Shown in pieces: positions 3,615 to 25,318 of a stretch of 64,000 nucleotides of DNA. The DNA comes from an uncultured Thermodesulfobacteriota bacterium. Lineage in GTDB: Bacteria; Desulfobacterota; WTBG01; CAIYCZ01; CAIRTM01. The DNA is taken from contig CAYLYF010000001.1 of the NCBI GenBank assembly GCA_964387595.1, positions 18,747 through 82,746 on the forward strand, given 5' to 3'. A program made the translations under genes and the position numbers. The notes under the pieces were generated by a model that searched no databases, was not told where the DNA came from, and saw nothing but the letters and a program-made list of their open reading frames with translations. The first letter of the stretch is position 1, and each line of letters starts with the position of its first letter.

Positions 3615-3663
3615 GTTCATAAAGTACTCTAAGTACTATTTAGTTTTTTGGAGACAATGATTT

Positions 3664-5467: not shown

Positions 5468-6250
5468 GTGATTATAATAAAGAGCAAACAGGAAATAATA
5501 AAGCTTCGGAAGGCAAACCGGATTGTAGGAGAAACGCTTCAGGAGCTTAAAAAGCATGTTGCTGAGGGAATATCAACTCTGGAACTTGACCGGATAGCCG
5601 AAAGTTATATCCGGTCAAAAGGCGGAGAACCCGCATTTAAGGGGTATGCAGGATTTCCGGCGACGCTTTGTGTGTCTGTAAATGATGAAGTCGTTCACGG
5701 TATTCCCGGGCCCAAAAAATTAAAAAATGGTGATATTGTAAGCTTAGATGTGGGGACACGGATAAAGGGTTTTTATGGCGATGCGGCAATAACTGTCGGC
5801 GTGGGTCAGATAAGCCCGGAAGCAGAAAAACTCATGAAAGTTACAAAAGAATCGCTTTATGCCGCCATCAAAAAGATGAGGGTCGGCAGAAGGCTTTCTG
5901 ATGTATCTGTCGCAGTGCAGAAACATGTTGAGGCCAACGGTTTTAGTGTGGTGAGGGATTTCGTGGGACATGGTATTGGTATGGATCTGCATGAAGACCC
6001 TCAGATCCCCAATTTTCATTCTCCCCAGTCTCATAATCCAAGGCTTAAAGAGGGAATGGTCTTCGCGATCGAACCTATGGTTAATCAGGGATTGTATGAT
6101 GTTAAAGTATTGTCGGACGGATGGACGGCAGTTACCCGGGACGGTAAACCTTCAGCTCATTTTGAACATACCGTGGCAGTGACATCCGGTGATCCGTGGA
6201 TATTAAGTGACCCTGATATGAAAAATGATTCTTATATACAGGCAGGATAG
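5468..6250 (+). CDS. map: type I methionine aminopeptidase
   Basis: 260 aa. Conserved Map metal-binding residues and overall pattern (DIVSLDVG, FVGHGIG, HFEHTV). Confidence 0.9.
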   Translation: MIIIKSKQEIIKLRKANRIVGETLQELKKHVAEGISTLELDRIAESYIRSKGGEPAFKGYAGFPATLCVSVNDEVVHGIPGPKKLKNGDIVSLDVGTRIKGFYGDAAITVGVGQISPEAEKLMKVTKESLYAAIKKMRVGRRLSDVSVAVQKHVEANGFSVVRDFVGHGIGMDLHEDPQIPNFHSPQSHNPRLKEGMVFAIEPMVNQGLYDVKVLSDGWTAVTRDGKPSAHFEHTVAVTSGDPWILSDPDMKNDSYIQAG

Positions 6251-6253
6251 ATT

Positions 6254-6757
6254 ATGGCTTTAATGGAGGTTTTACACTTTCCGCATCCGGTTCTCAGAAA
6301 AAAATGCGATAAGGTTGAGGCGGTTGATGAAGAAATAAAAAAAATTGCCGCTGATATGGCTGAAACAATGTATGCTGAAAAAGGTATTGGCCTTGCCGCG
6401 CCGCAGGTCGGGATAACAAAGCGGATCATTGTCGTTGATGTTGATGATGCGCTGATAACGCTTGTAAATCCTGAAATTAAGGTTTCAGGAGAAAAAGAAA
6501 AAATGGAGGAGGGCTGTCTTTGTCTTCCCAAAGTGTCTGTTGAGGTTGAAAGACTTACCCGTGTTCATATGGAAGGAATGGGGATAGCGGGTGAAAAAAT
6601 ATCAATTGATGCTGAAGATCTTCTTGCGAGGGCTTTTCAGCATGAGGTCGATCACTTAAACGGGATGCTGATAATTGATCACCTGTCCAAGGTGAAAAGA
6701 GATATGGTCGTTAAGAAGTTTAGAAAACTTCAGCTTAAGGAAAAAGAGGAAGAGTAA
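6254..6757 (+). CDS. def: peptide deformylase
   Basis: 167 aa. Motifs GIGLAAPQVG, EGCLS, HEVDHLNG. Confidence 0.9.
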   Translation: MALMEVLHFPHPVLRKKCDKVEAVDEEIKKIAADMAETMYAEKGIGLAAPQVGITKRIIVVDVDDALITLVNPEIKVSGEKEKMEEGCLCLPKVSVEVERLTRVHMEGMGIAGEKISIDAEDLLARAFQHEVDHLNGMLIIDHLSKVKRDMVVKKFRKLQLKEKEEE

Positions 6758-6835
6758 CTGCGCAAGATGCATAGGGCAGAGCGCATAGCAAAACCTTAAA
6801 TCAGTAATGTTTTATACTATGTCCTGTGTTCTCGA

Positions 6836-7648
6836 TTATGACTCTTCTGTTTTCCATTTTTGAAGCCGGCCTTTAATGAATTCAACCACCTTCTGGTGCT
6901 CCTCTTTGCCTGAGCCTTTAACTTCAAAAGGTTCTCCAAATTCAAAAAATATTTTTTTGGAAAGATCCAGCGGCCCGAAATCTTTGATTATTTTTCCGCT
7001 TGTCCAGAAATCGGTTTTTAAGGCCAGGGGAACAACAGGCACCTTGTTCCTTTTTGCCAGTTTGATGCCCAGGGAGTTGAAATTATCCGGGTTAAAGATT
7101 GTGTCCCGGGTGGACTGCGGAAAAATGATCACAGACTGTCCGCTTTGAATTTTTAAAGAGCCTTTCTGCATTACCTGCTTAAAGTCTTCAGAGGGACTTT
7201 TTCGGGTCACCCCTATGCATCCGGTGCTTTTTGTGTAGGGGCCGAAAAAAGGGATTTTAAAAAGCTGTTCTTTTATGACAAATATTGCATATCTGAAAGG
7301 CAGGACAAGAAAAGGAAGTATTACGGTCTCCAGGGTGCTCATGTGGTTACCGATGATGACCACAGGAGTATCTACCGCTTTTAATTTTTCCAGTCCCCTG
7401 ATGTTGAAAATTCCGCCGCAGTCTTCAATAAAGTTAAACATTGCAAGAGAGGAATTATACCAGTCTTCTCTTGACAGCCTGTTTGCGCGTGCTTTCGGCC
7501 ATGAATGGAAGACCACAAGTAGAAATCTGATTACATAATAGATGCGTGATCTGAAAAGCAGCCGGTGCAGAAGTTTTTCTTTTCCCGGTGCTGTTTGGTA
7601 GCGGTCTTTTTTAAGAAGGGGGTGTTTCATCTTCTTTTTTTGTCCCAC
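6836..7648 (-). CDS. lysophospholipid (1-acyl-sn-glycerol-3-phosphate) acyltransferase family protein
   Basis: 270 aa. IIGNHMSTLE (NHxxxxD/E-like acyltransferase motif) and a PlsC-like layout. The real start is probably an internal Met (MKHPLL). Confidence 0.6.
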   Translation of the reverse strand: MGQKKKMKHPLLKKDRYQTAPGKEKLLHRLLFRSRIYYVIRFLLVVFHSWPKARANRLSREDWYNSSLAMFNFIEDCGGIFNIRGLEKLKAVDTPVVIIGNHMSTLETVILPFLVLPFRYAIFVIKEQLFKIPFFGPYTKSTGCIGVTRKSPSEDFKQVMQKGSLKIQSGQSVIIFPQSTRDTIFNPDNFNSLGIKLAKRNKVPVVPLALKTDFWTSGKIIKDFGPLDLSKKIFFEFGEPFEVKGSGKEEHQKVVEFIKGRLQKWKTEES

Positions 7649-10600
7649 CAGCCGCCAAGGTCGTCAACAATGATCGCATATACTGATGGAAGGATAAAAA
7701 GGGTTAAAAGTGTTGCAAAGGCAAGACCCCAAAACAGCGTGTTGGCCATGGGCGCCCATATCTTTGATTTGCCGCCAAGCCCGATTGCCAGAGGCAGGAT
7801 GCCGAACATGGTGGTGACAGAGGTTAGGATAATAGGCCTTAATCTTAAACGCCCGGACTGGATGATTGATTGCCATCGGCCGACATTGTTTTTCCTGGCA
7901 TTGTTTATAAAGCTGATCATAACGATAGCATCGTTAACCGCAATTCCTGCCAGGCCGATAAATCCATACATCACAACAATGGAAAAGGGGTCGTTTGTTA
8001 TGATCAGTGACATGATTGCTCCGATGAACGCAAAAGGAACAGTCAGCAGAATAATAAAAGGCTGGGTATAGGACTTGAACTGTGCGCCGAGAATTATATA
8101 TATCAGAAAAAGGCTTAAGGCAAAAAGCTTGTAAAGGGAGGAAAAAGCCTCGTTCATTTCTCTGAACGCCCCTTCGAATCTGAGCCGGTACCCCGGATAT
8201 TTTCCAATTATATCCCGGGTTATTTCTTTTATCGTGGTGTTTACTTTTACGGTGGAATTGACCTGTTTGTCGATGCTTGCAGTTATTGCTGCAGCCCTGT
8301 CGAGTTTGTAGTGCTTGATCTTTGTATATCCCGGCTCGAATCTGATTTCGCCTACATTACTGAAAGGGATCAGCTGTCCCATGGGAGAAAGTATTTTAAG
8401 GTTATTGATGTCATCGATGTCTTTTATTTTTTCAGGATCGTATTTCACGATAACATCAATCTCTTCGTCACCTTCCCGGTACACAGTTGCAACAGTTCCT
8501 TCAAAAGCATTTCTTATGGTGGATGCTACCCTGAAAAGATCAAGGCCATAGATAGCCGCTTTATCTTCATCGACATAGATTTTCAGATCTTTTTTTCCGA
8601 AGGCAAGGTCATCTTTTATATCATAAATGCCCGGGATAAATGCTATGGCTGCCATGATCTCTTCGGATATTTTCTTAATGGTCTGAAGATACTTTCCCAC
8701 GACCTTGATCTCAACATCAGGCGAAACCGGAGGACCGGCGCGAAGCTTTTTAAAACCTATATTTTTGTAGCCGGGGATGTTCTGAAGATTTTTGCGGCAC
8801 ATCCTTATTATTTCATCTATTGAATGTTCGCGTTCTTTTGGTTCAACAAGGTCGATCATGATATGCCCGACAGCGGAGTTGAAAAGCCACGCTTCGTCAG
8901 TTATCAAAAGCCCGGTGTGGGTAACAAAAGATTTGACTTCATTCTTCGGCAGGGTAGATGCAAGCCTGCGCTCTATTTTTTCCATTACATTGTTGGTGGT
9001 CTCAAACTTGGATCCCTCTGTCAGTTCAACATTTACATTGAACTGCGAGATCTCATCCATGGTGTACATATCAACTTCAATAACCCGGAATAAAAGCAGA
9101 GAGCCTGCACCCAGAAAGAGCACAAATATTCCGCTGACAAAATAAAAGCGGTATCTTAAAACAAATTTTAACTGTCTGGAATAAATATCTTTAAGTCTGC
9201 TGATGATGCGTTTGCGAACTGCATTTTCTTTTTCTTTTTTACTCCAGTCTGCAATATGGCACGGCAGGATCAGAAAAGCTTCAAGAAGAGAGGCAACAAG
9301 TGCCAGACAGACAACGATCGGGACGACTCTTAAAAATTTCCCGATGATATCTGTCATCAGCATGAGCGGCAGAAAGGCCGCAATGGTTGTAAGACATGCT
9401 GTGAAAACGGGACCGATAACTTCTGTTGTGCCGGTGACAGCAGCTTCGTCCGGTTTCATGCCTTTATGAGAGTAGCGGTCACAGTTTTCGATGATGACAA
9501 TGGCATCATCAACAATTATACCGATGACCATCATCAGGGCAAAAAGGCTGCTTGTGTTAAGGCTTACTCCTGTTGCTTCCATCAGTATAAATGTTGACAT
9601 GATTGAAACAGGGATTCCTATGGCTGCAAAAAGCGCATTTCGCCATCCGATAAACAGGCATAAAAGGACTGCGACAAAAATAACGCCCATAAAGGCATTG
9701 GAGCCCAGTTTGTTTATGGAGTCACGGATCTGGATGGAGCTGTCATTTGTAATGATGATGTCACAGCCCGGGGGGAGGCGGTTTTTTTTGAAATCTTTAG
9801 AAAGTTCTTTTATCTGGTCAACAATTGCGATGGTGCTTCCCTTCTTCTTTTTTGAGATATTAAAGCTTATTCCGGGTTTTCTGTTGAAAAAGGAGAGGGT
9901 CCTTGTTTTCTTGAAAGTGTCTTTGATGTGGGCGACCTGACCGATCTTGACATGGTCTCCATTGGGGTCAGAACGCACGATAACATCCTCTATCTCGTTG
10001 GGGCTGTTATATTCACCGACTGTTCTTATGAGGTATTCAGAATTTCCGATCTCAAGCGTTCCGCCGGGCAGGTTGAAATTTGTGCCCTTAAGCGCAAGTG
10101 CAATCTGTTCAATTGAAAGTCCGTAACTGTAAAGCCGGTCTGATTCAACGTTTACCCATATCTCCCGGTCACGTGCACCGGTCAGTTCAAGTTTTCCGAT
10201 ATGATCCACTTCGAGCAGGAGGTCTTTGAATTCATCTGCAAGCTCCTTGAGCTCTTTCTCAGGAACATCCCCGGTGATGGTTACCTGCAGCGAAGGCAGA
10301 AACTCTCCTGTTTCAATGCTCACAATCCGGGTGTCTTCCGCTTCTTCAGGGAGATCATTGACTTCGTTTACAGCTGCCCGAAGGTCCTGGAGGATGATTT
10401 TAAAATCATCATCCGACATTTCATCGAAACGGACCAGAATGGCAGATTCACCCTCACCGGAAGTAGAGACAATGTAGTTGATGTTGTCAACATTCTTGAT
10501 TTTTTCTTCAATAGGGTTGGTTATGAGTTTTTCAATTTCTTCAGGAGCTGTTCCCGGATAGACCGTAAGGATGAGTGCAATGTTGAAGGTCAGGTCCGGA

Positions 10601-12277: not shown

Positions 12278-13672
12278 TTATGATGCAATTGGAAGGGTGA
12301 AGGAGATGCGGGTGCCTTCCCCCGGTTTGCTTTCAGCACTTATTTTTCCGCCGTGAGCTTTGGTGAACTGTCTGGCAATGGCAAGTCCCAGCCCCGTTCC
12401 TCCGGTTGAGCGGGACCTTGATTTATCGATCCGGTAGAATCTTTTAAAGATATGAGGCAGTTTTTCTTCGGGAATTCCATGTCCATTATCCTTCACCCAT
12501 ACTTCGACCATTTTCTCCTGCTTTTCCGCACCTATTTCTATTGTTCCGCTTTCAGGGGTATATTTTATGGCATTGGTTAAAATGTTGGACAGGACCTGAC
12601 CGATTCTCTTCGGGTCGATCATAACTTCAGGCAGGTTGTTGCTGACAGACTGTATGAGATTTATATTGTTTTCTTTTGTTCTCAGTATGAAAAGAGAAGC
12701 TGTGTCGGAGATGATCGCTTTTATTTTATACGGAGTAAAGGACATCTCAACCTGATTAAGTTCCAGTCTTGAAAGTATGGAAAGATCTGCGATCAGCTGG
12801 TCAAGATTATTAACATCAGTACATATTGCCTTCAAATGCTGATTTTGTTCATCTTTATCCATCTTTCTATCGATAAGAATTTCTGCATCAGAAAGAATCC
12901 TTGCCAGAGGGGATCTGATCTCATGGGATATGTCTGCAAAAAGTTCTTTTCTTGAATTTTGGAGCTCTTCAAGACTTTGTGACATGTCGTTAAATGTTTC
13001 TGCAAGCAGGCCCACTTCGTCATGTGACCGTATCTGCACTTTTATGCCGAAGCGTCCTTTTGCCATTTCCCGGGCAACTCTGGTGAGTTCCCGCATCGGC
13101 TTTGTCAGGTATCGTGACAGAAAACCTGTAAGTCCGCCTAGGATAATAATTGCGATAATTTCCGGAAGGCCTCTTGGCAGGACTCTTTGCAGATGTCTTG
13201 TCCTTGGATAATAGCTTTGGACAATGCCGATCACCTCGTTATTTTTTTTCAGAGGAACAGATACAATTGGGGTTAATATCCAGAAATGATAACTTTTCTG
13301 GATGTCCCAGCCATTTTTTAAGGCGGATTTAATGGTCTGCGAATGGTCACCGGTTGTTTTTTTCAGGCCTTCTTCGATGAAAGAGGCAAGCTCATTACCT
13401 TTCGTATCCAAAACCATTATGTCGGCTTCTTCATTTACGTGCAGAGTCTCTATAATATTTTTAAGCGAAGAATTGCTGTTTTCAAGCGCGGTTGTGATCC
13501 GGTCGGCATGGAGCTTTGTCTGGTTTATGAGGCTTTTTTTTGTCTGAGTATGGATTTCTGTAAGGGGGGCAAATCCAGAATAAAGCATGCCGAGAATGAC
13601 GGAGGTCAGCAAAATGAATAATAAAATAGTAAAAAAAAGTTTCCAGTAAATACTGATGCGGATGTTTTTCAT
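12278..13672 (-). CDS. sensor histidine kinase (TM-HAMP-HisKA-HATPase)
   Basis: 464 aa. H-box SHEIRSPL. N/G boxes DNGHGIP and GGTGLGLAI. Two TM segments. Confidence 0.85.
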   Translation of the reverse strand: MKNIRISIYWKLFFTILLFILLTSVILGMLYSGFAPLTEIHTQTKKSLINQTKLHADRITTALENSNSSLKNIIETLHVNEEADIMVLDTKGNELASFIEEGLKKTTGDHSQTIKSALKNGWDIQKSYHFWILTPIVSVPLKKNNEVIGIVQSYYPRTRHLQRVLPRGLPEIIAIIILGGLTGFLSRYLTKPMRELTRVAREMAKGRFGIKVQIRSHDEVGLLAETFNDMSQSLEELQNSRKELFADISHEIRSPLARILSDAEILIDRKMDKDEQNQHLKAICTDVNNLDQLIADLSILSRLELNQVEMSFTPYKIKAIISDTASLFILRTKENNINLIQSVSNNLPEVMIDPKRIGQVLSNILTNAIKYTPESGTIEIGAEKQEKMVEVWVKDNGHGIPEEKLPHIFKRFYRIDKSRSRSTGGTGLGLAIARQFTKAHGGKISAESKPGEGTRISFTLPIAS

Positions 13673-13673
13673 C

Positions 13674-14381
13674 TTATTCAGCGATAAACTTATATCCGGT
13701 TCCCCAGACAGTTATTATGTAGGACGGATTTTTGGGTGAGTCCTCTAGCTTTTTTCGAAGATGACTTATGTGTGCGTCAACCGAACGGTCAAAGGGTTCC
13801 AGTTCACGGTCTCTTAATTCATCAAGAAGTTTGTCCCGGCTGAAAACGATTCCGGGCTGGGACATCATCATCCACAGCAGGTTGAACTCGGTGCCGGTTA
13901 AGGTAAGAGGAGATCCCTTTTTTAAGACTTCTCTTTTTGAAGGATTCAGGCTGATGTCTCTGCAGGAGAGGATATCTTCTTTTGTTTCAGAAACTTCATT
14001 GGGCGGAGCAGGTCTTCTTAACCGTGCTTTTATTCTTGCCTGGAGTTCGCGCAGGCTGAAAGGTTTGGTGAGATAATCATCTGCTCCGACTTCAAGTCCT
14101 GCAACGATATCAGGCTCCTCTCCGCGGGCTGTAAGCATGATAACCGGAACACAGCTTGTTTTTCTGATTTCTCTGCAGACATCAAGCCCGTCGATTTCAG
14201 GCATCATAAGATCGAGGATTACCAGGTCCGGTGAAAAAGACCCCATTTTTTTTAAGCCTTCAGTGCCGTTATATGCGGCTTCTGTTCGGTAGTTAAAATC
14301 TTTTAAATAAGTTGAAACATTTTTTACCAGTCTTGCATCATCATCTATTATTAGTATCTTGTTCATAACTCCTGTTTTCAA
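13674..14381 (-). CDS. OmpR-family DNA-binding response regulator
   Basis: 235 aa. Receiver domain (DLMMPEIDG, KPF) plus a C-terminal winged helix (TVWGTGYKF). Confidence 0.9.
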   Translation of the reverse strand: MKTGVMNKILIIDDDARLVKNVSTYLKDFNYRTEAAYNGTEGLKKMGSFSPDLVILDLMMPEIDGLDVCREIRKTSCVPVIMLTARGEEPDIVAGLEVGADDYLTKPFSLRELQARIKARLRRPAPPNEVSETKEDILSCRDISLNPSKREVLKKGSPLTLTGTEFNLLWMMMSQPGIVFSRDKLLDELRDRELEPFDRSVDAHISHLRKKLEDSPKNPSYIITVWGTGYKFIAE

Positions 14382-14496
14382 TAAAATAAATATAAAATGA
14401 ACATTAAGTTAAACTCTGTTTTTTAATCCAATATTAAATTATTATAACATAAGCAGTTAAAATAAACATCAAACAATAAAATTACCTAGAATTTTA

Positions 14497-14829
14497 TTGT
14501 TTCCAGCTATTTTTTTTGTTAGATTAGTTATTAAAAAAATAAATATTTTGATCATTGAAGATGAAAAAGCTGTCAGTGAAATGTTTGAGGAACTGCTTAT
14601 AAGCGAAAGGCATGAAGTGGCTGTTGCCTGTGATGGAAATCAGGGGCTTGATATTTTCAGAAAAAAGAAGTTTGATCTTGTTTTTACGGATCTTGCAATG
14701 TCTGGAATGTCAGGCTGGCAGGTCGCAAAAGAGATAAAAAAGATTGACGACGCGGTGCCGGTCATTTTAACAACCGGTTATGAAATTAAATCTTCAGAAA
14801 AAGATGCTGATAAAAAAATGTTGATATAA
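14497..14829 (+). CDS. stand-alone CheY-like receiver domain protein, apparently frameshifted at an A7 run; the intact product would extend to 14924
   Basis: Phosphoacceptor region DLVFTDLAMSGMSG. The receiver C-terminus (IIKKPFTVSRIIAVILEALKK) is encoded in another frame from 14814 to 14924. Confidence 0.6.
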   Translation: MFPAIFFVRLVIKKINILIIEDEKAVSEMFEELLISERHEVAVACDGNQGLDIFRKKKFDLVFTDLAMSGMSGWQVAKEIKKIDDAVPVILTTGYEIKSSEKDADKKMLI

Positions 14830-14941
14830 TTATAAAAAAGCCTTTTACTGTTAGTAGAATAATAGCGGTTATTCTGGAAGCATTAAAAAAAAGAGACAGG
14901 ACCTCTGAAAAACCGAACAAATAAAGACGGGATGAAAAGAG

Positions 14942-15874
14942 ATGAAAACCAGTGAAGTGATCAGAAAAAAAATTGATAACGATGATGGAACCGCAACCCT
15001 TGTTTTTTACAGTGGCGGAAAAGAGGTCGCAAAAACAGTCGTTGACAAGAATTACGATGTAATAAAGCTGGAGGGTGAAATACCGGATGGTGTTGTAAAT
15101 CAGTATTATGATAATGGTAATCTCCTGGCAAAAGCGTATTATCTGTACAGCAAAAGGGAGGGGATGACCCGGATCTACCATGGAAACGGTATGCTGTGGC
15201 TTGAACTTAATTTTAGTGATGACAAGGCGGAAGGCGTTACCAAAGAATTTTATAAAAATGGCCGGATATACAAGGAAACAAATTTTAAAAACGGTAAAAT
15301 AGAGGGAAAGACAGTAGAATACTATGAAAACGGAAATCTAAAAAAAGAGGGTACCGTTATTAATGGTAAATCCGAAGGAATGGTTAAGGAATATTATGAA
15401 ACCGGCAATCCGTATCGAGAGTGGGAAAATGTTGCGGGTAAACCTGAGGGATTATTTAAAGAATATTGTGAAAGCGGGCAGTTAAGGGAGATTAAAAATT
15501 ATACAAATGGTGTTTTGGGAGGCCTTCATAAACAGTATTATGACAGCGGAGTTCTAAAGGGTGAATGGAACTATAAGGATGATAAAAAAGAGGGTATTGC
15601 AAGAGAATATTTTGAAAATGGTCAGATAAAATATATTGATACCTATAAAAAAGACCAGAGAATAGACCGGAAAGCATATCTTGATCAGGCAGAAGGAAAA
15701 AAAGAGGTTAAAGGTGGACAGGGCATTGATGAGCTTAAAAATATAATCTTATCGCAAAATGAAAGTTATATAGCATATCAGGACCAGATACTTGAGAGGC
15801 TTCGGCTTGTTGATAAAAGGATCTCCGGTCTGGAAAATGTAGTTTCTGAGCTGCGTGATCTTTTGAAAAAATAG
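14942..15874 (+). CDS. MORN-repeat (MORN_2/YwqK-like) protein with C-terminal coiled coil
   Basis: 310 aa with 7-8 repeats of the Y-x-N-G-x-L/K-x-E-G type. No signal peptide. Confidence 0.75.
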   Translation: MKTSEVIRKKIDNDDGTATLVFYSGGKEVAKTVVDKNYDVIKLEGEIPDGVVNQYYDNGNLLAKAYYLYSKREGMTRIYHGNGMLWLELNFSDDKAEGVTKEFYKNGRIYKETNFKNGKIEGKTVEYYENGNLKKEGTVINGKSEGMVKEYYETGNPYREWENVAGKPEGLFKEYCESGQLREIKNYTNGVLGGLHKQYYDSGVLKGEWNYKDDKKEGIAREYFENGQIKYIDTYKKDQRIDRKAYLDQAEGKKEVKGGQGIDELKNIILSQNESYIAYQDQILERLRLVDKRISGLENVVSELRDLLKK

Positions 15875-15922
15875 GGTGGAGAAACCGGAGAGGGTGGTAG
15901 CTCAGTTAAGAAAGGCTGATCT

Positions 15923-16375
15923 TTGATTAAACTTTATCTTGCAGGGCCGCTTTTTACCCGGGCAGAGCAAAACTGGCTAAGAAACCTAAAGGCAGAGATT
16001 GAGTCTCTTGCTGTCAGTAAAGGTAAAGAAATTGATGCTGTGTGGCCCTATGAACTTGTCTCTCAAGAAGACCTTGAAAAATGGGGAGACAGGTCAAAAC
16101 ACAAGATCTTTTCTTTGTGTGAAAAACATCTGAAAGAAACGGATGTTTTAATTGCGCTTCTTGACGGGCCCCTTGTGGATGACGGTACTTCCTGGGAGAT
16201 CGGCTATTTTTATTCCATCAGAAAAGACGGGCAGCCCATACTTGGGATAAGGACGGATTTCAGGAGCGCAGGAGATGTGCCGGGCGCACAGGTCAACCTT
16301 ATGATCGACTGTTCCTGCGACCTTATCTTTTCCTCATCTGAAGCACTTTTAAAGAAGCTGGAAGAAATTTTTTAA
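15923..16375 (+). CDS. nucleoside 2-deoxyribosyltransferase-like protein
   Basis: 150 aa. YLAGPLF N-terminus and DGPLVDDGTSWEIGYFYS catalytic-region motif of the Nuc_deoxyrib_tr fold. TTG start. Confidence 0.7.
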   Translation: MIKLYLAGPLFTRAEQNWLRNLKAEIESLAVSKGKEIDAVWPYELVSQEDLEKWGDRSKHKIFSLCEKHLKETDVLIALLDGPLVDDGTSWEIGYFYSIRKDGQPILGIRTDFRSAGDVPGAQVNLMIDCSCDLIFSSSEALLKKLEEIF

Positions 16376-16416
16376 AAGCGTCTTTTTTAAGGGGGCTTTC
16401 CGGTGTAACCGTTACC

Positions 16417-16707
16417 CTATATCTCTTCTGTAATTCTTAAAAACTCTTCAATCGGCAGGGCCTGGAGCGTCTTTGGAACGATTCTTCCGGAGGCAGCTAT
16501 TTTAAGTATGGTTGACGCAAGGGTGCTTTTGTTGGGCATTTCCATTATGGTGATAATATCATATTCTCCTATCAGGCCGTAGATCTTAACCAGCTTTCCG
16601 CCGTTTGCTTCTATGATCTTTTTTACGGCTTCAAAGCGTAAGGCCGTATTTTTTATATCTCTAAGTCCTTCTGATGTATATTTCCATAGTGTGATAAAAA
16701 GCGGCAT
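16417..16707 (-). CDS. GYD domain protein
   Basis: MPLFITLWKYTSEG...GEYDIITIMEMPN matches the GYD family. Start refined to the internal ATG with an AAGGAG RBS. Confidence 0.7.
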   Translation of the reverse strand: MPLFITLWKYTSEGLRDIKNTALRFEAVKKIIEANGGKLVKIYGLIGEYDIITIMEMPNKSTLASTILKIAASGRIVPKTLQALPIEEFLRITEEI

Positions 16708-16878
16708 TTTGATCTCCTTTATAAAGTATTTATATTTATAATCCGCAAACCCGATACGTATGGATTTGCAATTTTTGACTGTAAAAAACCATTGCATAGT
16801 GAAAGGAGCATAGAGGAGAGCATCTTTGTTGTTTTCTTTCAGGTTTTAAACTCCATGCACTTACCGCTATGCGCTAAG

Positions 16879-18465
16879 CTATTTATCCATTGCCTCTGTT
16901 TCTTCTTTTTTAAGAATATTTTTCTGTACTTTACCGATTGATGTTCTCGGGAAGTCCTCTTTAAACTTTACAAAACCCGGAACTTTGAATTTTGCCAGCT
17001 TTTCTGCGCACCAGTCGATGATTTCCTGCTCTTCACAGGTTTCTCCCGGATTCAGGATGATCAGGGCCATGATGGCTTCGTCGCGAATGGGGTCAGGAAC
17101 GCCGATGACAACATTCTCTTTTACTTTAGGATGCAGGCTGATGACATATTCGACTTCAGTGGCGGCCACATTTTCGCCTGACCGTTTAATCATGTCTTTC
17201 TTTCGGTCAACAAAATGAAAATAACCGTCTTCGTCCATGTAGGCATTATCTCCAGTGTAGAGCCAGCCGTCCCGAATTGTTTCTGCCGTTGCTTCAGCGT
17301 TGTTATAATAGGCTTTCATCAGGGTTCTGCCGGGCACACCCTTTACAATAATCTCTCCCACGGTTCCCGGGGGCACTTCATTTCCGCTTTCATCGATTAC
17401 TTTGATGGCATTTTCTGCTCTTGGCATTCCAATACAGTTTCTTTTTAAGACACCGTCAATGGGATTAAGTGTGGTGGCGCCTAAAGTCTCTGTCATGCCC
17501 CACAAATCGCATAGCTTTGTATCAAACCTATTTTCAAATCCCTCCCATATTTCGTCAGGGATGACGATCGCATACATGACGATCCGCAGGTTGTTTTCTG
17601 CATCAAGTTTATGGGAAGGCTGGTTATAGGCCATTTTTAAGGTTGCTGCAACAAGACTGGTCGTGGTTGCACCATGCGCGCGTACCTGGGGCATGAATTT
17701 TGTTGCGCTGAACTGTTCGGCCATGATAAGTGTTGCCCCTGCGGTCAAGGTGGGCATAACTGATATGAACTGACCGTTGACATGGAAAAGGGGAAGCACA
17801 ATAAAGTGCCGGTCAGCCGGGGTTACTTTCCAGGCCTGTGCACCGAATATTCCGGCAAAGACCGCATTTGCATGGGTGAGCTGTACCGCTTTGGGCCGTG
17901 ATGTTGTTCCTGAAGTAAACAGCCACATCAGATCATCTTCGTTGTCAATTTCTGTTTCGGGTAATTCAGTGGGCGTGTCTCTTAAAAGGTCTGCCATAAC
18001 GATTGAATCGGGATAGAGCTTCTGGCTCGGGTAGCGCGGAGAGGTCCTGGATAAAAATATCTGTTTCACGCTTTTGCATTTTTCAAGAAGTCCGGTAAAG
18101 GTCTCCATATAGCCGGGCTCGGTGATAACAGCAACGGATTCAGAGTAGTTAAGATAATATTCCAGTTCAAATCCACCGGAAAACACATTGGTGGGAATCG
18201 TAACCGCACCAATTTTCCCCAGGCCAAACCATGAAAAGAGATATTCAGGGGAATTGAGCATGTGGACAACAACCTTGTCCCCTTTTTTAATGCCTTTATC
18301 AAGAAGAATATTGGCATATTTGTTAATCATCATATTAAATTCTGTGTAGCTGTAGCGGATAACATTTTCTTCCCGGTCTTCAAAAACAATACATTCCTTG
18401 TCCGGAAACTGGCTGACTTTCAGTTCGATGACGTCTCTGAGATTTTTTGTTCCGATAATGTCCAT
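16879..18465 (-). CDS. AMP-dependent acyl-CoA synthetase (long-chain fatty acid-CoA ligase-like)
   Basis: 528 aa. AMP-binding motif LFTSGTTSRPKAV. C-terminal conserved Lys region. Confidence 0.85.
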   Translation of the reverse strand: MDIIGTKNLRDVIELKVSQFPDKECIVFEDREENVIRYSYTEFNMMINKYANILLDKGIKKGDKVVVHMLNSPEYLFSWFGLGKIGAVTIPTNVFSGGFELEYYLNYSESVAVITEPGYMETFTGLLEKCKSVKQIFLSRTSPRYPSQKLYPDSIVMADLLRDTPTELPETEIDNEDDLMWLFTSGTTSRPKAVQLTHANAVFAGIFGAQAWKVTPADRHFIVLPLFHVNGQFISVMPTLTAGATLIMAEQFSATKFMPQVRAHGATTTSLVAATLKMAYNQPSHKLDAENNLRIVMYAIVIPDEIWEGFENRFDTKLCDLWGMTETLGATTLNPIDGVLKRNCIGMPRAENAIKVIDESGNEVPPGTVGEIIVKGVPGRTLMKAYYNNAEATAETIRDGWLYTGDNAYMDEDGYFHFVDRKKDMIKRSGENVAATEVEYVISLHPKVKENVVIGVPDPIRDEAIMALIILNPGETCEEQEIIDWCAEKLAKFKVPGFVKFKEDFPRTSIGKVQKNILKKEETEAMDK

Positions 18466-18856: not shown

Positions 18857-19846
18857 CTAAGGAGAAAGAAGTTTAATAAGAGAATGATATTCTCCGGCAC
18901 CTATCTGTTCTGCCCCTTCCTTGCCATAATCAGGGAAATTAACGCTTCCAACTGGTTGAAAAACGTAGATATTGGTAAAATCGGCATATCCAAAACCCAG
19001 CTCGCCGTTACTATTACTACCGGCTGCCAAAAGAGAGCCGTCGCAGTTTAAAACGGAGAAGCTGGCGCCACAGCCCATGTTTGTTACAGAAGAAAGAATA
19101 ATCTCGGGCGTTTCAGCATAGTCGCCGCCCGAATCGCTTCCTAAACCGATCTGTCTATTAGTATTACTCCAGCAGGCATAAAGAGCGCCTGTGGTCAGGC
19201 GGATCAGGGTATGCCTTAACCCGGCCCTGGCAAAATCAACACCCGTTTTACTTTGGACTAAAGTTTTATAATCATTATTACCGTCTGTATGAATGGTGCC
19301 GTCAGTTGCAAGATAAACTGTAAATGAAACACCTCCGGCAACCTGTACCACGTTGTCAGCCAGTTTAGTCCATTCAGTGACCGGATTATTGTGTCCAAGC
19401 CCAAGCTGGCCATCAAAATTAGATCCCACACCCCACAGCTCATCTGTGTCCGTAATGACATAAGAATTATATCGTGTTGCACAGATGCTATTTACTGTTC
19501 CTGAAAAGGTGCAGGCTGTCCAGGTGCTCCTGTTTATATTTGTTCCGTCACCCCGCTGATAGCTGCTGTTGCTGCCCGTTGCAAATAAAGTATAGTCGGC
19601 TGTTATCAGAAAGAGCTCGCTCTCATCAAAAACATCCGGGCCATCAGCAGAAGCTATTTTTATTATATAATCACTTTCGGCGACGCCTTCTACCGTCCAG
19701 TAAAAGCTGTCGGTATTCGGCGCAGGATTTGAAATGGTAATTGTCTGGGCATAAGAGGTTTGATCCATATCTAAAACTGCAAAGGTTAAAAACATTGCAG
19801 CAGTCATAAACAGGGGCAAAAAATATTTTATGTTTTTAAAGCGCAT
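18857..19846 (-). CDS. secreted RCC1-repeat (beta-propeller) protein
   Basis: N-terminal signal peptide. Several GxLGLG / GELGFG RCC1-type blades. Confidence 0.7.
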   Translation of the reverse strand: MRFKNIKYFLPLFMTAAMFLTFAVLDMDQTSYAQTITISNPAPNTDSFYWTVEGVAESDYIIKIASADGPDVFDESELFLITADYTLFATGSNSSYQRGDGTNINRSTWTACTFSGTVNSICATRYNSYVITDTDELWGVGSNFDGQLGLGHNNPVTEWTKLADNVVQVAGGVSFTVYLATDGTIHTDGNNDYKTLVQSKTGVDFARAGLRHTLIRLTTGALYACWSNTNRQIGLGSDSGGDYAETPEIILSSVTNMGCGASFSVLNCDGSLLAAGSNSNGELGFGYADFTNIYVFQPVGSVNFPDYGKEGAEQIGAGEYHSLIKLLSP

Positions 19847-20031: not shown

Positions 20032-21042
20032 TTAACAGATCCTGGGCAGAAGTTCTCCTGCAGGAAGGTCGATCTGTCGGGTTCCGCCGATCACGGTTTG
20101 AAGAATGAGTCTGCCTTTTTTTTCTTCACTGACTTCTCCGATGATGGCGGCATTTTTTCCAAAAGGATTATTTTTCATTATTTCCAGGATATTTTGAGCA
20201 TAAGATGATGGACAAAAAAGCACCATCTTTCCCTCATTGGCAAAAAAGAGCGGATCAAGACCCAGTATTTCACAGGCTCCCCGAACCTTGTCATTAATCG
20301 GGATTTTCACCTCATCAATATTTATGGTGTGACCGGATTGTGATGCGATTTCTGAAAGGATGCCGCCGAGTCCGCCCCGGGTGGCATCCCGCATGCAGTG
20401 GACTTCAGGACAGGATTTAAGTATCTGTTCAACAAGTTTATTCAGTGGGGCTGAATCGCTGATAATGTCTGAACTTAGATTAAGGTCTTCTCTTTTGTTA
20501 AGAATGGCGGCTGCATGATCGCCGATGGTGCCGTTTATGATGATGGCATCGCCCGGTCTTATTTCCTGGACAGAGATGTTTGCCTCATACTTAATGAGGC
20601 CTATGGCGGAAGTGTTGATAAAGATTTTGTCTGCGGCCTCTTTATTAACGACTTTGGTGTCCCCGGTAATGATGTGAACGCCGGCATTTTTGGCAGCTTG
20701 ACCCATTGATGAAACAATTTCCTCCAGTTCTGAAATCTCAAATCCCTCCTGGATGATAAATCCCGCACTCAGGTAAAGGGGTTTTCCGCCGCGCATGGCA
20801 ATATCATTTACGGTGCCGTGAACTGACAATGAGCCGATGTTTCCACCGGGAAAGAAGATCGGATTTATGACGTATGAGTCTGTGGTGAAGCAGAGTTTGG
20901 TGCCGTTTATATCAAAGGCGGTGCTGTCTTCCATCTGGGAAAGAAGGGGGTTGTCAAAATGGGGTTTAAATTTTTCGGAGATGAGTTCCCCGGTTAATAG
21001 GCCGCCGCTGCCGTGGTCGAGGAGAATCTTGTTGTCACTCAT
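20032..21042 (-). CDS. hypE: hydrogenase maturation protein HypE
   Basis: 336 aa, AIR-synthase-like. MSDNKILLDHGSGG N-terminus. C-terminal PRIC. Confidence 0.9.
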   Translation of the reverse strand: MSDNKILLDHGSGGLLTGELISEKFKPHFDNPLLSQMEDSTAFDINGTKLCFTTDSYVINPIFFPGGNIGSLSVHGTVNDIAMRGGKPLYLSAGFIIQEGFEISELEEIVSSMGQAAKNAGVHIITGDTKVVNKEAADKIFINTSAIGLIKYEANISVQEIRPGDAIIINGTIGDHAAAILNKREDLNLSSDIISDSAPLNKLVEQILKSCPEVHCMRDATRGGLGGILSEIASQSGHTINIDEVKIPINDKVRGACEILGLDPLFFANEGKMVLFCPSSYAQNILEIMKNNPFGKNAAIIGEVSEEKKGRLILQTVIGGTRQIDLPAGELLPRIC

Positions 21043-21204
21043 AATACACCTTTTTGTTTATAATATGTTTTGGTTTTTAGAGATAATTCTTTTTCTTTAA
21101 AGGGTCCAGGGTTTCTCGGTCGTAGCAGAGAGCAGAGTAGAGCATTTTTGTTTCCAGATGTTATTCTCTATGCTTTTACCGTCATGCGCTTTGTATTCAT
21201 CGTC

Positions 21205-23472
21205 TTACAGCTGTGAAGCAGCACAAACGGCCTGTCCCAGGGAGATGCCGCCGTCATTGGGGGGGACAAGGCTGTGGGTGATGACTTCAAAGCCTTTATC
21301 CGCCATTTTCTTTACGCATCCTTCAAGAAGTATTCTATTTTGGAAACATCCACCGCTTAATACTACCCGGTTTAATTCTTTTTCATTTCTTAATATTTCA
21401 GCCATTTTTGTAAAAGAATCTACAAGCGTAGCGTGAAAAGTCGATGCCAGATATTTATTGTCTTTGCGGTCAAGCTTCATTTCAATAATATGCTTTATTG
21501 CAGGCATCAGGTCAAGGATATGGGCGTTTTGTTCATGGGTGATGCTGAATTCAAGTTCTGTATCATCACGCTGTTCTGCAATTGCTTCAAGTTCCATGGC
21601 AGCCTGTCCTTCAAAGCTTACGCTGTTTTTTATGCCGATCAGGCAGGAAACGCCGTCAAAGAGTCTTCCCAGACTTGAGGTGGTAAAACAGTTAATTTCT
21701 TTTTTAATGGCAGTTTCAAAAAGGTCAAGATTTTCATCTGTTGGGCAAAGGCTGAGTTCTTTTGCCAGCTGTTTCCATGAGCCGGGATGGGTTGTTCTGA
21801 TCAGGGAAAGTGCAATGCGCCATATCCGGCGGATGGAACTTTCTCCTCCGGGAATGAGGATGTTTTTTAAATGTCCTGCACGGCTAAAATCTTTTTCATT
21901 TGCAATTAAAAATTCTCCGCCCCAAACTGTATTCTCCGGGCCGTAACCGGTACCGTCCATTGCAATTCCAATAACATCTCCGGATATATTATTTTCTGCC
22001 ATACAGCTTACAATATGGGCATGGTGATGCTGGACCGGGATGATTCTTTCAGGTCCCATTTCTTTTGCAAGGGCCGTAGAAAAATAATCCGGGTGCATGT
22101 CGCAGGCAATGATTTTTGGGGATGTATTTGAAACAGCTTTAAGCAGGTTTACGCTTTCGCGAAGAAAATCACGGGCCTCAGGTGTTTCAAGGTCACCAAT
22201 ATGGGGGCTTAAATAGGCTTTTCCCCCTTTCGTAATACAGGCTGTTGATTTCAGGTGAGGGCCCAGAGCTAGTACCTCAGGATAGTTCTTGTTAAGCCTG
22301 ACGGGTGAGGGCACATAACCCCGTGAACGGCGAAGCATAACCGGATTTCCGGATAATACCATTGCGATCGAATCATCGTTTCTGACCCGTATGTCCCGGT
22401 TGTGGATCAGGAAAAATTCTGCAATACCTGAAAGTCTTGTTACGGCTTCTCTGTTCCCAATGCAGATCGGCTCATCTTTTTTATTGGCACTTGTCATGAC
22501 AAGTGCCTGGAAACTGTTTTCAAAAAGAAGATGCTGAAGCGGTGTGTAGGGAAGCATGATTCCAAGAGAGGGAAGATCTCCGGCGATCACTTTTGCAAGG
22601 GAAGAAAAAGTTTTCTTTTTTAACAGTACAATTGGGCATTCTGGAGAAAGAAGCAATTTTTTTTCTTTTTCATTTATCTCACACAGCTCTGCGGCCTGCA
22701 GTATATCTTTTACCATTACAGCAAAGGGTTTTTCTTCCCTGAACTTGACTTCCCTTAGTTTTTTCACTGCCTCGCTGTTATATGCATCAGCACACAGGTG
22801 AAAACCGCCAAGACCTTTTATGGCTGCTATCTGCCCGTTTGAAAGAATCTCTATAATATCAAGAACCGGATCATCCGAGCTTATTTCGTTACCTTCTTTG
22901 TCCAGCAGCCATAATTTTGGGCCGCAGTCCGGACAGGCATTGGGCTCAGCATGGTAGCGCCGGTTATTCGGATCTTCAAATTCTCGGCTGCAGGAGCGGC
23001 ACAAAGGAAAACAGGACATGGAGGTATTGGCCCGGTCGTAAGGCACATTTTTTAATATGGTTAATCTCGGGCCGCAGTTTGTGCAGTTAATAAAAGGATA
23101 GCGGTATCTCCGGTTGAGCGGGTTTAAAAGGTCATCTTTGCAGGCGATGCAGGTGGCTATGTCAGGCGTGATCAGAACGTCAGGACGTGCGTCAGACGTA
23201 CTTTTAAGGATTTTAAATTGCCGGTCATTTTCCGGAGGAATATCTTCTGTTACGACTTTTTCAACCTGTGACATGGGGGGGTAGCAGCTTGATAGTTCAT
23301 TGTAAAAGAGATCCAGTGCAAATGATCCCCCTTCAACCTCAAGCAGAACCCCCTTTCCGGTGTTTTTTATAAAGCCTGTAAGGCTATGACGGCACACAAG
23401 TCTGTAAAGGGAAGGGCGAAAACCCACTCCCTGAACAATTCCTGTAAATAAGGAGCGAAGCCGTTTCTGCAT
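21205..23472 (-). CDS. hypF: carbamoyltransferase HypF
   Basis: 755 aa. Acylphosphatase domain, two CxxC Zn-finger pairs, YrdC-like and Kae1-like domains. Confidence 0.9.
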   Translation of the reverse strand: MQKRLRSLFTGIVQGVGFRPSLYRLVCRHSLTGFIKNTGKGVLLEVEGGSFALDLFYNELSSCYPPMSQVEKVVTEDIPPENDRQFKILKSTSDARPDVLITPDIATCIACKDDLLNPLNRRYRYPFINCTNCGPRLTILKNVPYDRANTSMSCFPLCRSCSREFEDPNNRRYHAEPNACPDCGPKLWLLDKEGNEISSDDPVLDIIEILSNGQIAAIKGLGGFHLCADAYNSEAVKKLREVKFREEKPFAVMVKDILQAAELCEINEKEKKLLLSPECPIVLLKKKTFSSLAKVIAGDLPSLGIMLPYTPLQHLLFENSFQALVMTSANKKDEPICIGNREAVTRLSGIAEFFLIHNRDIRVRNDDSIAMVLSGNPVMLRRSRGYVPSPVRLNKNYPEVLALGPHLKSTACITKGGKAYLSPHIGDLETPEARDFLRESVNLLKAVSNTSPKIIACDMHPDYFSTALAKEMGPERIIPVQHHHAHIVSCMAENNISGDVIGIAMDGTGYGPENTVWGGEFLIANEKDFSRAGHLKNILIPGGESSIRRIWRIALSLIRTTHPGSWKQLAKELSLCPTDENLDLFETAIKKEINCFTTSSLGRLFDGVSCLIGIKNSVSFEGQAAMELEAIAEQRDDTELEFSITHEQNAHILDLMPAIKHIIEMKLDRKDNKYLASTFHATLVDSFTKMAEILRNEKELNRVVLSGGCFQNRILLEGCVKKMADKGFEVITHSLVPPNDGGISLGQAVCAASQL

Positions 23473-23474
23473 GT

Positions 23475-24131
23475 TTATCCTTTAAACTGTTCTATTTGAC
23501 CGGTCAGCCAGGAGACCCATTGGTCAAGCCCTTGACCTGTTTTGCATGAAACCCCAAAGATGTTTAAGTCCGGGTTAATGCTTTTTGCGTCTTTTAAAGC
23601 CTTTTTCATATCAAAATCAACATAGGGTAAAAGGTCGGTTTTGTTGATGAGCAGCGCGGTGGATTCCTTGAACATGAGCGGGTATTTCATGGGTTTGTCC
23701 GCACCTTCCGGCGTGCTTAGCAGCATTACTTTTATATTCTCCCCAACTGAAAATTCTGCAGGGCATACTAGGTTTCCCACGTTTTCATTGATGATGAAAT
23801 CGATCTCATCCATATTAAACCCGGGGAAGGTCTCACGGATCATATTGCCGTCAATGTGACAGGCCCCGCCGGTGTTGATCTGGGCAACCGGAATGTCGAG
23901 CTTTGCGATCCGCTCAGCATCATAGGTGTCCTGAATATCGCCTTCGATGACTGCTATCCGGAACTTATCTTTAAGCGCCTTGATCGTTTCTTCAACCAGG
24001 GTTGTTTTTCCGGCTCCCGGTGAACTCATCAGGTTGATCACGTAAATATTTTTTTCGTCAAACAGTTTCCTGTTTTCCTGAGCGATCCTGTTGTTTGCGT
24101 CAAGTACATTCTTTACCACGTTTATTTTCAT
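23475..24131 (-). CDS. hypB: hydrogenase nickel-incorporation GTPase HypB
   Basis: 218 aa. P-loop SPGAGKTT. CH motif GGACH. Confidence 0.9.
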   Translation of the reverse strand: MKINVVKNVLDANNRIAQENRKLFDEKNIYVINLMSSPGAGKTTLVEETIKALKDKFRIAVIEGDIQDTYDAERIAKLDIPVAQINTGGACHIDGNMIRETFPGFNMDEIDFIINENVGNLVCPAEFSVGENIKVMLLSTPEGADKPMKYPLMFKESTALLINKTDLLPYVDFDMKKALKDAKSINPDLNIFGVSCKTGQGLDQWVSWLTGQIEQFKG

Positions 24132-24148
24132 TTTTAAAACCTCTCGGG

Positions 24149-25237
24149 TCAGTGATATTTATAATAGGTTGAACAGGTGCCTTCAGAAGACACCATGCAG
24201 GGGCCTATGGGATTTATAGGGGTACATGCTTTCTTGAAAAGCGGGCACTCCCCGGGATTTTTTATGCCGCGCAGGATGTCCCCGCAGGAACAGCCTGTAA
24301 TTTCTTCAGGAATGATTTCCGGTATTTCAAAACGTTTCAGAGCATCAAAACTGCTGTATTCATTTTTAAAGACAAGTCCGCTTCCGGGAATGTTGCCGAT
24401 GCCTCTCCATTCAGCAGAACAGGCTTCAAAAACTTCAAACAGGATGTTCCGTGCCTTTTTGTTTCCCTCCGGGGAAACCGCTCGTTTGTACTGAATCTCG
24501 ATTTTTTTCGTATCGTTAATAATCTGTTCGAGTATTAAATAGATGCCTTCCAGAATATCAACAGGCTCAAATCCGGTGATGACTGCACTGCGTCCTGCCT
24601 TTATAATATCTTTATAAGCCTCTGTTCCGGTAATGGTGCTCACATGTCCTGGACACAGAAAGCCGTCAATGGCAAGGGCTGGATCTTCAATCAGTATCTT
24701 TATAGCCGGGGGCATTGTCTTCATTACACAATACACAGAAAAATTCCAGATATCTTTTTTATGACATGTTTTGATTACAGATGCAATTGTTGGGGAAGTG
24801 GTCTCAAATCCGATTCCCATAAAGATGATCTCTTTTGAAGGATTGTCCTGGGCTAGTTTGATGCAGTCGGCAGCAGAGGTAACGATCCGGATGTCTGCGC
24901 CTTCTGCTTTTGCCGTCTGAAGGCTTCTCCGGTTTGAACCCGGCACCCGTATCATATCTCCAAAGGTTGTAAATATGGTATTTTTAATATTGGAAAGAAA
25001 GACGGCCGTATCGACTTCGCGGGCAGAAGTGACGCATACCGGGCAGCCCGGGCCTGAAACCAGTTTGATGTTTTCAGGGAGCAGGTTCCGTATACCGAAT
25101 TTACCGATGGCATTTGTGTGGCTGCCGCACACTTCCATGAGGGTGATATTTCCGGGTATTTTTTCTGCACGGGTTTTTATGCCTTTAATCAGGCTTTTTA
25201 CCAGGTCAGGGTTTCGGTATTCATCAATTAATTTCAT
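24149..25237 (-). CDS. hypD: hydrogenase maturation factor HypD
   Basis: Motifs CPVCVTS, GFETT, CPGHVS. Start refined to internal Met (MKLIDEYRNPD). Confidence 0.9.
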   Translation of the reverse strand: MKLIDEYRNPDLVKSLIKGIKTRAEKIPGNITLMEVCGSHTNAIGKFGIRNLLPENIKLVSGPGCPVCVTSAREVDTAVFLSNIKNTIFTTFGDMIRVPGSNRRSLQTAKAEGADIRIVTSAADCIKLAQDNPSKEIIFMGIGFETTSPTIASVIKTCHKKDIWNFSVYCVMKTMPPAIKILIEDPALAIDGFLCPGHVSTITGTEAYKDIIKAGRSAVITGFEPVDILEGIYLILEQIINDTKKIEIQYKRAVSPEGNKKARNILFEVFEACSAEWRGIGNIPGSGLVFKNEYSSFDALKRFEIPEIIPEEITGCSCGDILRGIKNPGECPLFKKACTPINPIGPCMVSSEGTCSTYYKYH

Positions 25238-25252
25238 GGGTTTAAAAATATT

Positions 25253-25280: not shown

Positions 25281-25318
25281 CTATTGCTTATTGTGAACTT
25301 TATTCTATGAACATCATA

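Follow-up and report, generated by a model that had tools for sequence, protein, structure and literature searches.

We examined a cluster of four open reading frames (ORFs; positions 14497 to 16800) in a 64,000-nucleotide (nt) stretch of contig CAYLYF010000001.1 (positions 18,747 to 82,746, forward strand; assembly GCA_964387595.1) from an uncultured Thermodesulfobacteriota bacterium. The whole stretch is here referred to as "the window," and positions are given within it unless a related locus is named. An initial annotation had proposed that a stand-alone CheY-like receiver, a MORN-repeat protein, a nucleoside 2-deoxyribosyltransferase (NDT)-like protein, and a GYD-domain protein might together form a small signaling or nucleotide-processing module. 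All four ORFs are present at the annotated positions and on the annotated strands (Table 1), the MORN and NDT genes are separated by the 48-nt gap that had been described, and profile searches place the four products in the named families (Response_reg, MORN_2, Nuc_deoxyrib_tr, and GYD) at scores above the Pfam curated cutoffs. The NDT ORF also exceeds the Pfam gathering score for Nuc_deoxyri_tr2. A scan against NCBIfam gave only generic matches far below the cutoffs for the receiver, a weak match to the LIC20035 adhesin repeat for the MORN protein, and nothing for NDT or GYD. The flanks are likewise as annotated: minus-strand genes for an RND pump, membrane-fusion protein, histidine kinase, and OmpR-type regulator precede the cluster, and an acyl-CoA synthetase gene follows it. 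These assignments come from the Pfam annotation of L001, a Logan-assembly contig (SRR7528366) with the same gene order, an NDT protein identical to that of the window, and 100% DNA identity over 521 aligned bases. In the other closely related loci (designated by L numbers throughout), NDT identity to the window's protein is 91% (L002), 81% (L003 and L004), and 70% (L087 and L088), and synteny with the window extends over the entire region in all of them. The neighboring genes for the acyl-CoA synthetase, an RCC1-like protein, and HypE are likewise conserved in the syntenic lineage.

Table 1. Features of the four-ORF region, with positions in the window
Feature	Position	Strand	Remarks
Divergent intergenic (promoter) region	14382-14532	.	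AT-rich; between OmpR-type regulator gene (-) and former hybrid kinase operon (+)
Receiver-like ORF	14497-14829	+	As in ORF listing; Response_reg, 70.4 bits
Deletion junction	14533-14536	+	~1.82 kb of kinase gene (PAS domains, kinase core) gone; A-rich microhomology at the joint
Receiver remnant	14533-14924	+	Pseudogene in two frames, 14533-14817 and 14820-14924
A7 homopolymer with 1-nt deletion (A8 to A7)	14812-14818	+	A8 in L002 and L003; L087 without the homopolymer
MORN-CC gene	14942-15874	+	310 amino acids (aa); cytoplasmic MORN_2 repeats and long C-terminal helix; PF07661, E = 9e-30, 99.6 bits
NDT gene	15923-16375	+	150 aa, TTG start; DpNDT-type; PF05014, E = 1e-17, 64.7 bits
GYD ORF as listed	16417-16797	-	PF08734, E = 2.5e-21, 75.9 bits
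GYD-domain protein, likely extent	16417-16707	-	96 aa; ATG preceded by AGGAG
Acyl-CoA synthetase gene (AMP-binding)	16879-18465	-	

The receiver-like ORF did not prove to be the stand-alone gene that had been annotated; it is a pseudogene remnant of the C-terminal receiver domain of a hybrid sensor kinase. At its position, the syntenic relatives carry a hybrid kinase with the domain order PAS-PAS-...-HATPase_c-Response_reg (707 aa in L002, 865 aa in L003, and 875 aa in L087), and every orthologue of the receiver is the C-terminal domain of such a 707- to 875-aa kinase and not an independent gene. The Response_reg match of the ORF spans only profile positions 1 to 82 of 111. The segment encoding β5 and α5, VDIIIKKPFTVSRII..., is absent from the frame of the ORF and is found in another frame at 14820 to 14924, where the out-of-frame portion reads VDIIIKKPFTVSRIIAVILEALKK... 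directly after a run of seven A residues (A7). The conserved β5 lysine (KKPF strand) is therefore out of frame, and the ORF does not encode a complete (βα)5 receiver. Relatives read through this segment in a single frame as DKKNVDIIIKKPF, which the window reproduces exactly once one A is restored. Both the A7 run and the junction upstream of it recur in L001, within the 521 aligned bases of that separate assembly, so the frameshift is not a one-off assembly error. The repaired receiver (121 aa) is 83% identical to residues 584 to 704 of the L002 kinase and 62% identical to residues 745 to 865 of the L003 kinase. It is orthologous to the receiver domain of the PAS-histidine kinase-receiver proteins of L002, L003, and L087, but the window version has lost the PAS, dimerization, and ATPase parts, and its frame is broken ahead of the conserved Lys. 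Residues 1 to 12 of the ORF are translated intergenic DNA, and the remnant has neither a native start codon nor a ribosome-binding site. The acidic pocket (EDE) and the phospho-acceptor Asp (FTDLAM) are still present.

The extent of the loss can be read from the alignments to the relatives. Positions 13601 to 14536 of the window align to L002 positions 795 to 1732 at 87% identity, with 72 nt separating the last of these from the start codon of the kinase, and from 14533 onward the window aligns from position 3554 of L002, 4565 of L003, and 4498 of L087. Because the match to L002 runs to 1732 and resumes at 3554, about 1.82 kb is missing. In the relatives, the gene for the PAS-kinase-receiver hybrid sensor kinase comes first in a plus-strand operon. 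In the lineage of the window, the deletion joined the promoter region directly to the end of the gene that codes for the receiver, and a later 1-nt loss in the A8 run broke what was left. The ratio of nonsynonymous to synonymous substitution rates (dN/dS) is 0.21 for the remnant versus L002 and 0.23 between two intact kinases; since the value for the remnant is not above that for the intact genes, the decay is probably recent or below the resolution of dN/dS.

Upstream of the junction, the annotated AT-richness is confirmed by a GC content of 0.26 to 0.28 across 14200 to 14650, and a single weak sigma-70-like match lies at 14463 to 14492. No terminator was found between 14200 and 17000, the convergent gap between NDT and GYD folds no better than shuffled sequence (z = -0.8), and an Rfam scan of 14200 to 17000 at a permissive threshold gave no riboswitch, its sole match being a spurious long noncoding RNA (E = 0.1). 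Because neither a terminator nor a long gap intervenes, the former promoter of the kinase probably still drives transcription of both the MORN and the NDT gene.

The GYD gene belongs elsewhere. It is a real gene, given that it is under strong purifying selection (dN/dS of 0.045), and its domain score compares with a curated cutoff of 31.4 bits. Its product is most likely 96 aa long, starting at the ATG at 16707, as it is called in L001 to L004 and L087. It lies outside this cluster, being part of, or following, the synthetase unit on the opposite strand: the gene lies downstream of the acyl-CoA synthetase gene in the same orientation, with a gap of 25 nt in L003 and 157 to 171 nt in the other relatives. 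Its convergent orientation relative to NDT, correctly annotated, means that the two share no transcript. GYD adjoins NDT only in L001 to L004, L087, L090, L092, L093, L110, and L113, always with the synthetase gene beside it, and in the metagenome loci it is present only together with that gene. A profile scan of GTDB species genomes yielded 80 species-level NDT loci, and a phmmer screen of these never placed GYD next to NDT outside the fully syntenic relatives.

These findings bear directly on the proposal that the receiver, MORN, NDT, and GYD genes constitute one signaling or nucleotide-processing module. The genes do lie side by side in the window, as they do in at least five related lineages, and the hybrid kinase of the relatives heads a same-strand operon, 26 to 43 nt upstream of the MORN gene. 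However, one of the four is a frameshifted deletion remnant, another is oriented toward NDT and associated with the synthetase gene, and neither of these two is linked to NDT outside the fully syntenic lineage. Two-component genes tightly flank NDT in only ~5 of the 80 loci, which by a rough estimate is no more than chance. The neighborhood comparison suggested in the initial annotation thus finds the four genes together only in a narrow, fully syntenic lineage and close NDT relatives (72 to 74% identity) alone in unrelated contexts, the two outcomes that the annotation itself had named as counting against a module. We regard a four-gene system as extremely improbable.

The reading that we favor, with a probability of about 60%, is that the region is a vertically inherited patch of chromosome carrying three unrelated units and not one system. 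A dead sensor kinase lies beside a MORN-NDT gene pair, and the apparent orphan receiver and four-gene "module" are a false lead that can be removed, the former as gene decay and the latter as an accident of synteny. What remains is a narrowly distributed MORN/coiled-coil protein (here MORN-CC) co-inherited with a DpNDT-like enzyme in which an active-site Asp is replaced by Cys.

The match of the enzyme to PF05014 (curated cutoff, 28.8 bits) covers profile positions 1 to 117 of 117. The family profile matches PDB entry 7o62 (DpNDT; E = 5.5e-21), which is also the top Foldseek match of the structure model (predicted local distance difference test [pLDDT] score of 86), followed by EfPDT and CtNDT. 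DpNDT is a tetrameric type II transferase of Desulfotalea psychrophila with an active site of Tyr16, Asp74, Asp94, Glu100, Asn127, and Met129 and tetramer contacts through Phe22, Glu26, and Arg119 (PMC12372993). The window protein is of the same Pfam family and the same size (~150 aa), is ~33% identical, and keeps the C-terminal CxC motif. Tyr16, Asp94, Glu100, Asn127, and Met129 correspond to Y5, D86, E92, N125, and M127, the Asn and Met forming the NLM motif that comes from the neighboring subunit, and the interface residues are conserved as F11, E15, and R114. The catalytic Glu nucleophile, which the initial annotation had singled out for checking, is retained (E92); across the family, this Glu is found in 79 of 80 members and the polarizing Tyr in 77 of 80. 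The protein is a nucleoside 2'-deoxyribosyltransferase-like enzyme of the DpNDT subgroup; from its catalytic and tetramer-interface residues, it most likely has a salvage-type role. The gene is under purifying selection (dN/dS of 0.12).

Differences from DpNDT are the replacement of Asp74 by Cys and of Met78 by Leu and, in one subclade, the pairing of the gene with a MORN-CC gene. The Asp74 position is C66 in the window, and Cys is the rule here (74 of 80 members; Asp in 4 of 80, including DpNDT). The corresponding residue of CtNDT, D62, touches both the nucleobase and the 2'/3'-hydroxyls, clashing with a ribose 2'-OH, and a D62N mutant keeps ~50% of the catalytic efficiency (PMC10913048), so the Asp is not essential. 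We infer from the sequence that the chemistry of glycosyl transfer would be retained and that a Cys at this base- and 2'/3'-OH-contacting position would alter sugar or base preference without loss of catalysis. In the most likely reaction, the enzyme would cleave the N-glycosidic bond of 2'-deoxynucleosides via a covalent deoxyribosyl-Glu92 intermediate and then pass the sugar to another base or to water, which would amount to nucleoside and base salvage.

The annotated TTG is the likely start of the NDT gene. It lies one codon upstream of the ancestral ATG and is conserved in L002 and L003, where positions equivalent to 15923 to 15928 and the following codon read TTG ATG AAR; the window has TTG ATT AAA, and initiation must therefore use TTG or ATT. 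Loss of the ATG, together with the kinase deletion, may reflect weakening expression of the operon.

Other branches of the NDT family occur in different surroundings. In Thiocapsa (L068, positions 4687 to 7035; also L059, L065, L071, L073, L075, and L076), an NDT-family gene shares 4 nt with the end of a gene for a UmuC-like Y-family polymerase with IMS, IMS_C, and DUF4113 domains, and a gene for an S24 (UmuD/LexA-like) peptidase follows 55 nt later, which suggests a link of this branch to DNA damage. Genomes of the Syntrophobacteraceae type repeatedly have a Ros/MucR regulator beside NDT, and hybrid kinases recur as its neighbors in three loci. NDT relatives with 29 to 49% identity are also encoded on 32 viral or prophage contigs from IMG/VR (L133 to L164), with no MORN, GYD, UmuC, or S24 gene within 4 kb of them.

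The structure of MORN-CC was predicted with AlphaFold2 from an alignment of database homologues (pLDDT of 87). The model comprises 21 β-strands (residues 6 to 245) in one long sheet, a disordered segment (residues 249 to 262), and a 49-residue helix (residues 261 to 309) that supports the annotated C-terminal coiled coil; no signal peptide was found in the protein. Its best Foldseek matches are the MORN1 proteins 6t69 and 6t4d. With these and the junctophilin 7rxe, it shares a predicted elongated, single-layer β-sheet of hairpins (E = 1e-8 to 1e-6), but at only 15 to 19% identity, and MORN-CC differs from the eukaryotic arrays in being bacterial and cytoplasmic and in having its putative dimerization element as a separate C-terminal helix. 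MORN1/junctophilin-type arrays act as protein-binding or dimerizing rulers. Conservation extends over the full protein, N-terminal hairpins and C-terminal helix included, with a mean column identity of 70%, 76 to 86% identity to the syntenic orthologues, and a dN/dS of ~0.11. Full-length homologues are rare: a search of 5.8 billion proteins returned four, the rest matching the repeats only, and a scan of metagenomes added more, all limited to a narrow group of uncultured Thermodesulfobacteriota or "delta proteobacteria." Other MORN_2 proteins align over the repeats only, at 25 to 40% identity. In a few loci the reading frames are split, the MORN gene being fragmented in L113 (5001 to 5861) and L110 and the NDT gene of L034 (6001 to 6449) being split into ORFs of 124 and 97 aa, where sequencing error and decay cannot be told apart.

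To assess linkage from the MORN side, sequences were collapsed at 95% identity, leaving 20 nonredundant lineages with enough downstream sequence. NDT is the next or next-but-one gene after MORN-CC in 12 of the 20. The arrangement of the window (regulator and kinase genes divergent from hybrid kinase, MORN, and NDT, which converge on GYD and the synthetase) occurs in five lineages, plus L008, which is without the hybrid kinase and has MORN-CC 419 nt upstream of NDT; loci of this type with the pair are L002, L003, L087, L092, L093, and L008. In a second, tightly packed context (six lineages), the order is PK_C-like, Kdo/WaaP-like kinase, MORN, NDT, Gate, Gate, and MBL. Five lineages have regulator and kinase genes divergent from MORN and a 5'-nucleotidase, and one lineage each has a flavodoxin/FMN-reductase-like gene after MORN, MORN and NDT 7.7 kb apart with opposite-strand genes between them, and an unidentified gene downstream of MORN. 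NDT directly follows MORN-CC with a 4-nt overlap of stop and start codons in L006 (an ENA contig), L009, L011, L012, L013, L016, L096, L098, L100, and L111.

The second context (for example, L013 positions 2746 to 8522, L006 positions 1914 to 6474, and L098 positions 2916 to 9934) encodes a PK_C-like protein of ~200 aa, a Kdo/WaaP-like kinase of ~415 aa, two Gate ("nucleoside recognition") membrane proteins, and an MBL-fold hydrolase; from its gene content, a role of this operon in nucleoside uptake or processing is conceivable. A search of the whole window found no homologues of the Kdo-like kinase, Gate, MBL, or PK_C-like genes and no trace of an SDR gene.

Two opposed accounts of this linkage have to be weighed. 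In one, the adjacency of MORN and NDT is inherited synteny only, their functions are unrelated, and NDT is a stand-alone salvage enzyme; MORN-CC might then, for example, work with the neighboring envelope or efflux genes. This is a serious rival to any partnership of the two proteins, even if, on balance, we think it unlikely. In the other, MORN-CC would be an oligomerizing binding partner of NDT, as scaffold or regulator, which, judging from gene linkage, is most plausibly its role. The second context shares no flanking gene with the window and nevertheless keeps the pair, with its 4-nt overlap, and the MORN and NDT trees are congruent; both observations run counter to synteny alone. In the neighbor-joining tree of NDT, the MORN-linked enzymes form one clade, with the solitary genes of L007 and L089 nested inside it. 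In the tree of MORN-CC proteins, the types linked to NDT are paraphyletic with respect to the remaining ones, which suggests that the pair is ancestral and has been lost two to three times. The pair is thus lineage restricted, apparently ancestral, and undescribed, in a locus that is otherwise ordinary; a literature search turned up no publication that connects MORN proteins to NDT enzymes.

Several observations weigh against treating MORN-CC and NDT as a unit. There are only two independent contexts, and the window-type, L008, and 5'-nucleotidase loci have the upstream regulator and kinase in common. The regulator, kinase, and membrane-fusion genes upstream in L008 and L005 are orthologous to those of the window (64 to 70%, 44 to 52%, and 54% identity, respectively), and MORN-CC stays beside the orthologous OmpR regulator, kinase, and RND locus in the window-type, L008, 5'-nucleotidase-type, and L101 loci. 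What follows MORN-CC is variable, with an exported 5'-nucleotidase lipoprotein in five lineages and a flavodoxin-like gene in one taking the place of NDT. The pair is interrupted by an SDR gene in L002 (4960 to 5724; the closest relative, GCA_024449895.1) and in the metagenome contig L109 (603 to 1367) and is split by 7.7 kb in one genome (L101/L132). From the NDT side, no MORN_2 gene was found within 6 kb of NDT, among the 80 loci and the ENA contig, beyond L006, L008, L009, L011, L012, L013, L016, and the syntenic relatives. About 70 of the 80 loci have no MORN, GYD, or receiver neighbor, and clustering of all neighboring ORFs gave no universal NDT partner. Even within the MORN-linked clade, solitary NDT genes (L007, 74% identity; L089, 72%) lie in unrelated neighborhoods. 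Finally, the Asp74-to-Cys replacement and the lost ATG count against a firm claim on either the activity or the expression level of the predicted enzyme.

Details of two of these arrangements are recorded here. The 5'-nucleotidase gene (Metallophos and 5_nucleotid_C domains) begins 13 to 16 nt after MORN-CC in L005 (8001 to 10680), L102, L104, L105, L107, L108, and L112, which represent the five nonredundant lineages. We considered whether it displaces NDT functionally and rejected the idea, as its lipoprotein signal peptide makes a shared cytoplasmic pathway unlikely. In L132 (positions 1 to 8462; contig Ga0272442_10000170), MORN-CC and NDT are on the same strand, and the 7.7-kb interval carries, on the opposite strand, DUF362, squalene-cyclase-like, CarboxypepD_reg, and 1,388-aa NHL/peptidase C13 genes; this interval appears to be an insertion that separated the two genes.

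A different kind of partnership, in which the NDT-fold N-glycosidase would damage nucleotides or DNA and the YwqK-like MORN protein encoded upstream would neutralize it, extends the analogy to YwqK-type immunity proteins drawn in the initial annotation. YwqJ is a deaminase toxin of the LXG type. Its antitoxin or immunity partner in Bacillus subtilis is YwqK (PMC8321402), and MORN_2 (YwqK) proteins are annotated as antitoxins. MORN-CC belongs to the same repeat family (PF07661) and is likewise small, cytoplasmic, and encoded beside the gene of a nucleotide-acting enzyme; the gene order and 4-nt overlap of the second context resemble type II toxin-antitoxin modules, toxin-antitoxin and restriction-like genes lie near the locus in L006 and L013, and NDT relatives occur on the IMG/VR contigs mentioned above. 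However, the analogy draws on the name of the repeat family only. MORN-CC differs from YwqK-type proteins in having an additional N-terminal β-hairpin region and the 49-residue C-terminal helix, and its partner gene follows instead of preceding. No polymorphic toxin gene (LXG, Rhs, or similar) was found upstream of MORN, where the genes are a hybrid kinase or its remnant, an OmpR-type regulator, or a Kdo-like kinase. A scan of the MORN, NDT, and GYD proteins against PADLOC-DB v2 gave no match at E ≤ 0.01, and YwqK and MORN are not mentioned in the main text of surveys by the Aravind group. The linkage is also too loose for a toxin always accompanied by its antitoxin, since the close NDT relatives of L007 and L089 are without MORN-CC and MORN-CC is without an NDT gene in at least six lineages. 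No DNA-binding domain is present in MORN-CC, which is also missing from the viral contigs, NDT has no trafficking domain, and the closest characterized relative, DpNDT, is an ordinary transferase. An immunity-like or toxin-antitoxin pair is therefore, in our estimate, very unlikely.

More specific than the favored reading of three unrelated units, and considerably more doubtful, is the idea that MORN-CC is the dedicated partner of the Cys-variant NDT-fold N-glycosidase, either an inhibitor or a coiled-coil-dimerized scaffold that gates the enzyme. The two would then constitute an undescribed two-gene module for nucleoside or nucleotide processing, placed ancestrally under the control of a sensor kinase in one lineage and coupled in another to a Kdo-like kinase and a pair of Gate membrane proteins. 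A minor addition to this idea is that rare -1 slippage at the A7 run might yield the full receiver (DKKNVDIIIKKPF). Should MORN-CC and NDT interact, a bacterial MORN_2 protein would have a cytoplasmic partner unconnected with immunity, and an enzyme class that matters for nucleoside biocatalysis would have a regulated form. Without such an interaction, the locus is ordinary.

Beyond the synthetase gene, the RCC1/WD40_RLD-repeat neighbor (18857 to 19846, minus strand) encodes 329 aa in the window, 567 to 574 aa in L002 and L087, and 290 aa without a Pfam match in L003, and thus also varies by large insertions or deletions. It is followed by a hydrogenase maturation cluster (HypE-like AIRS, HypF, cobW/HypB-like GTPase, HypD, and HypC; 20032 to 26224, minus strand) that is kept in the syntenic relatives.

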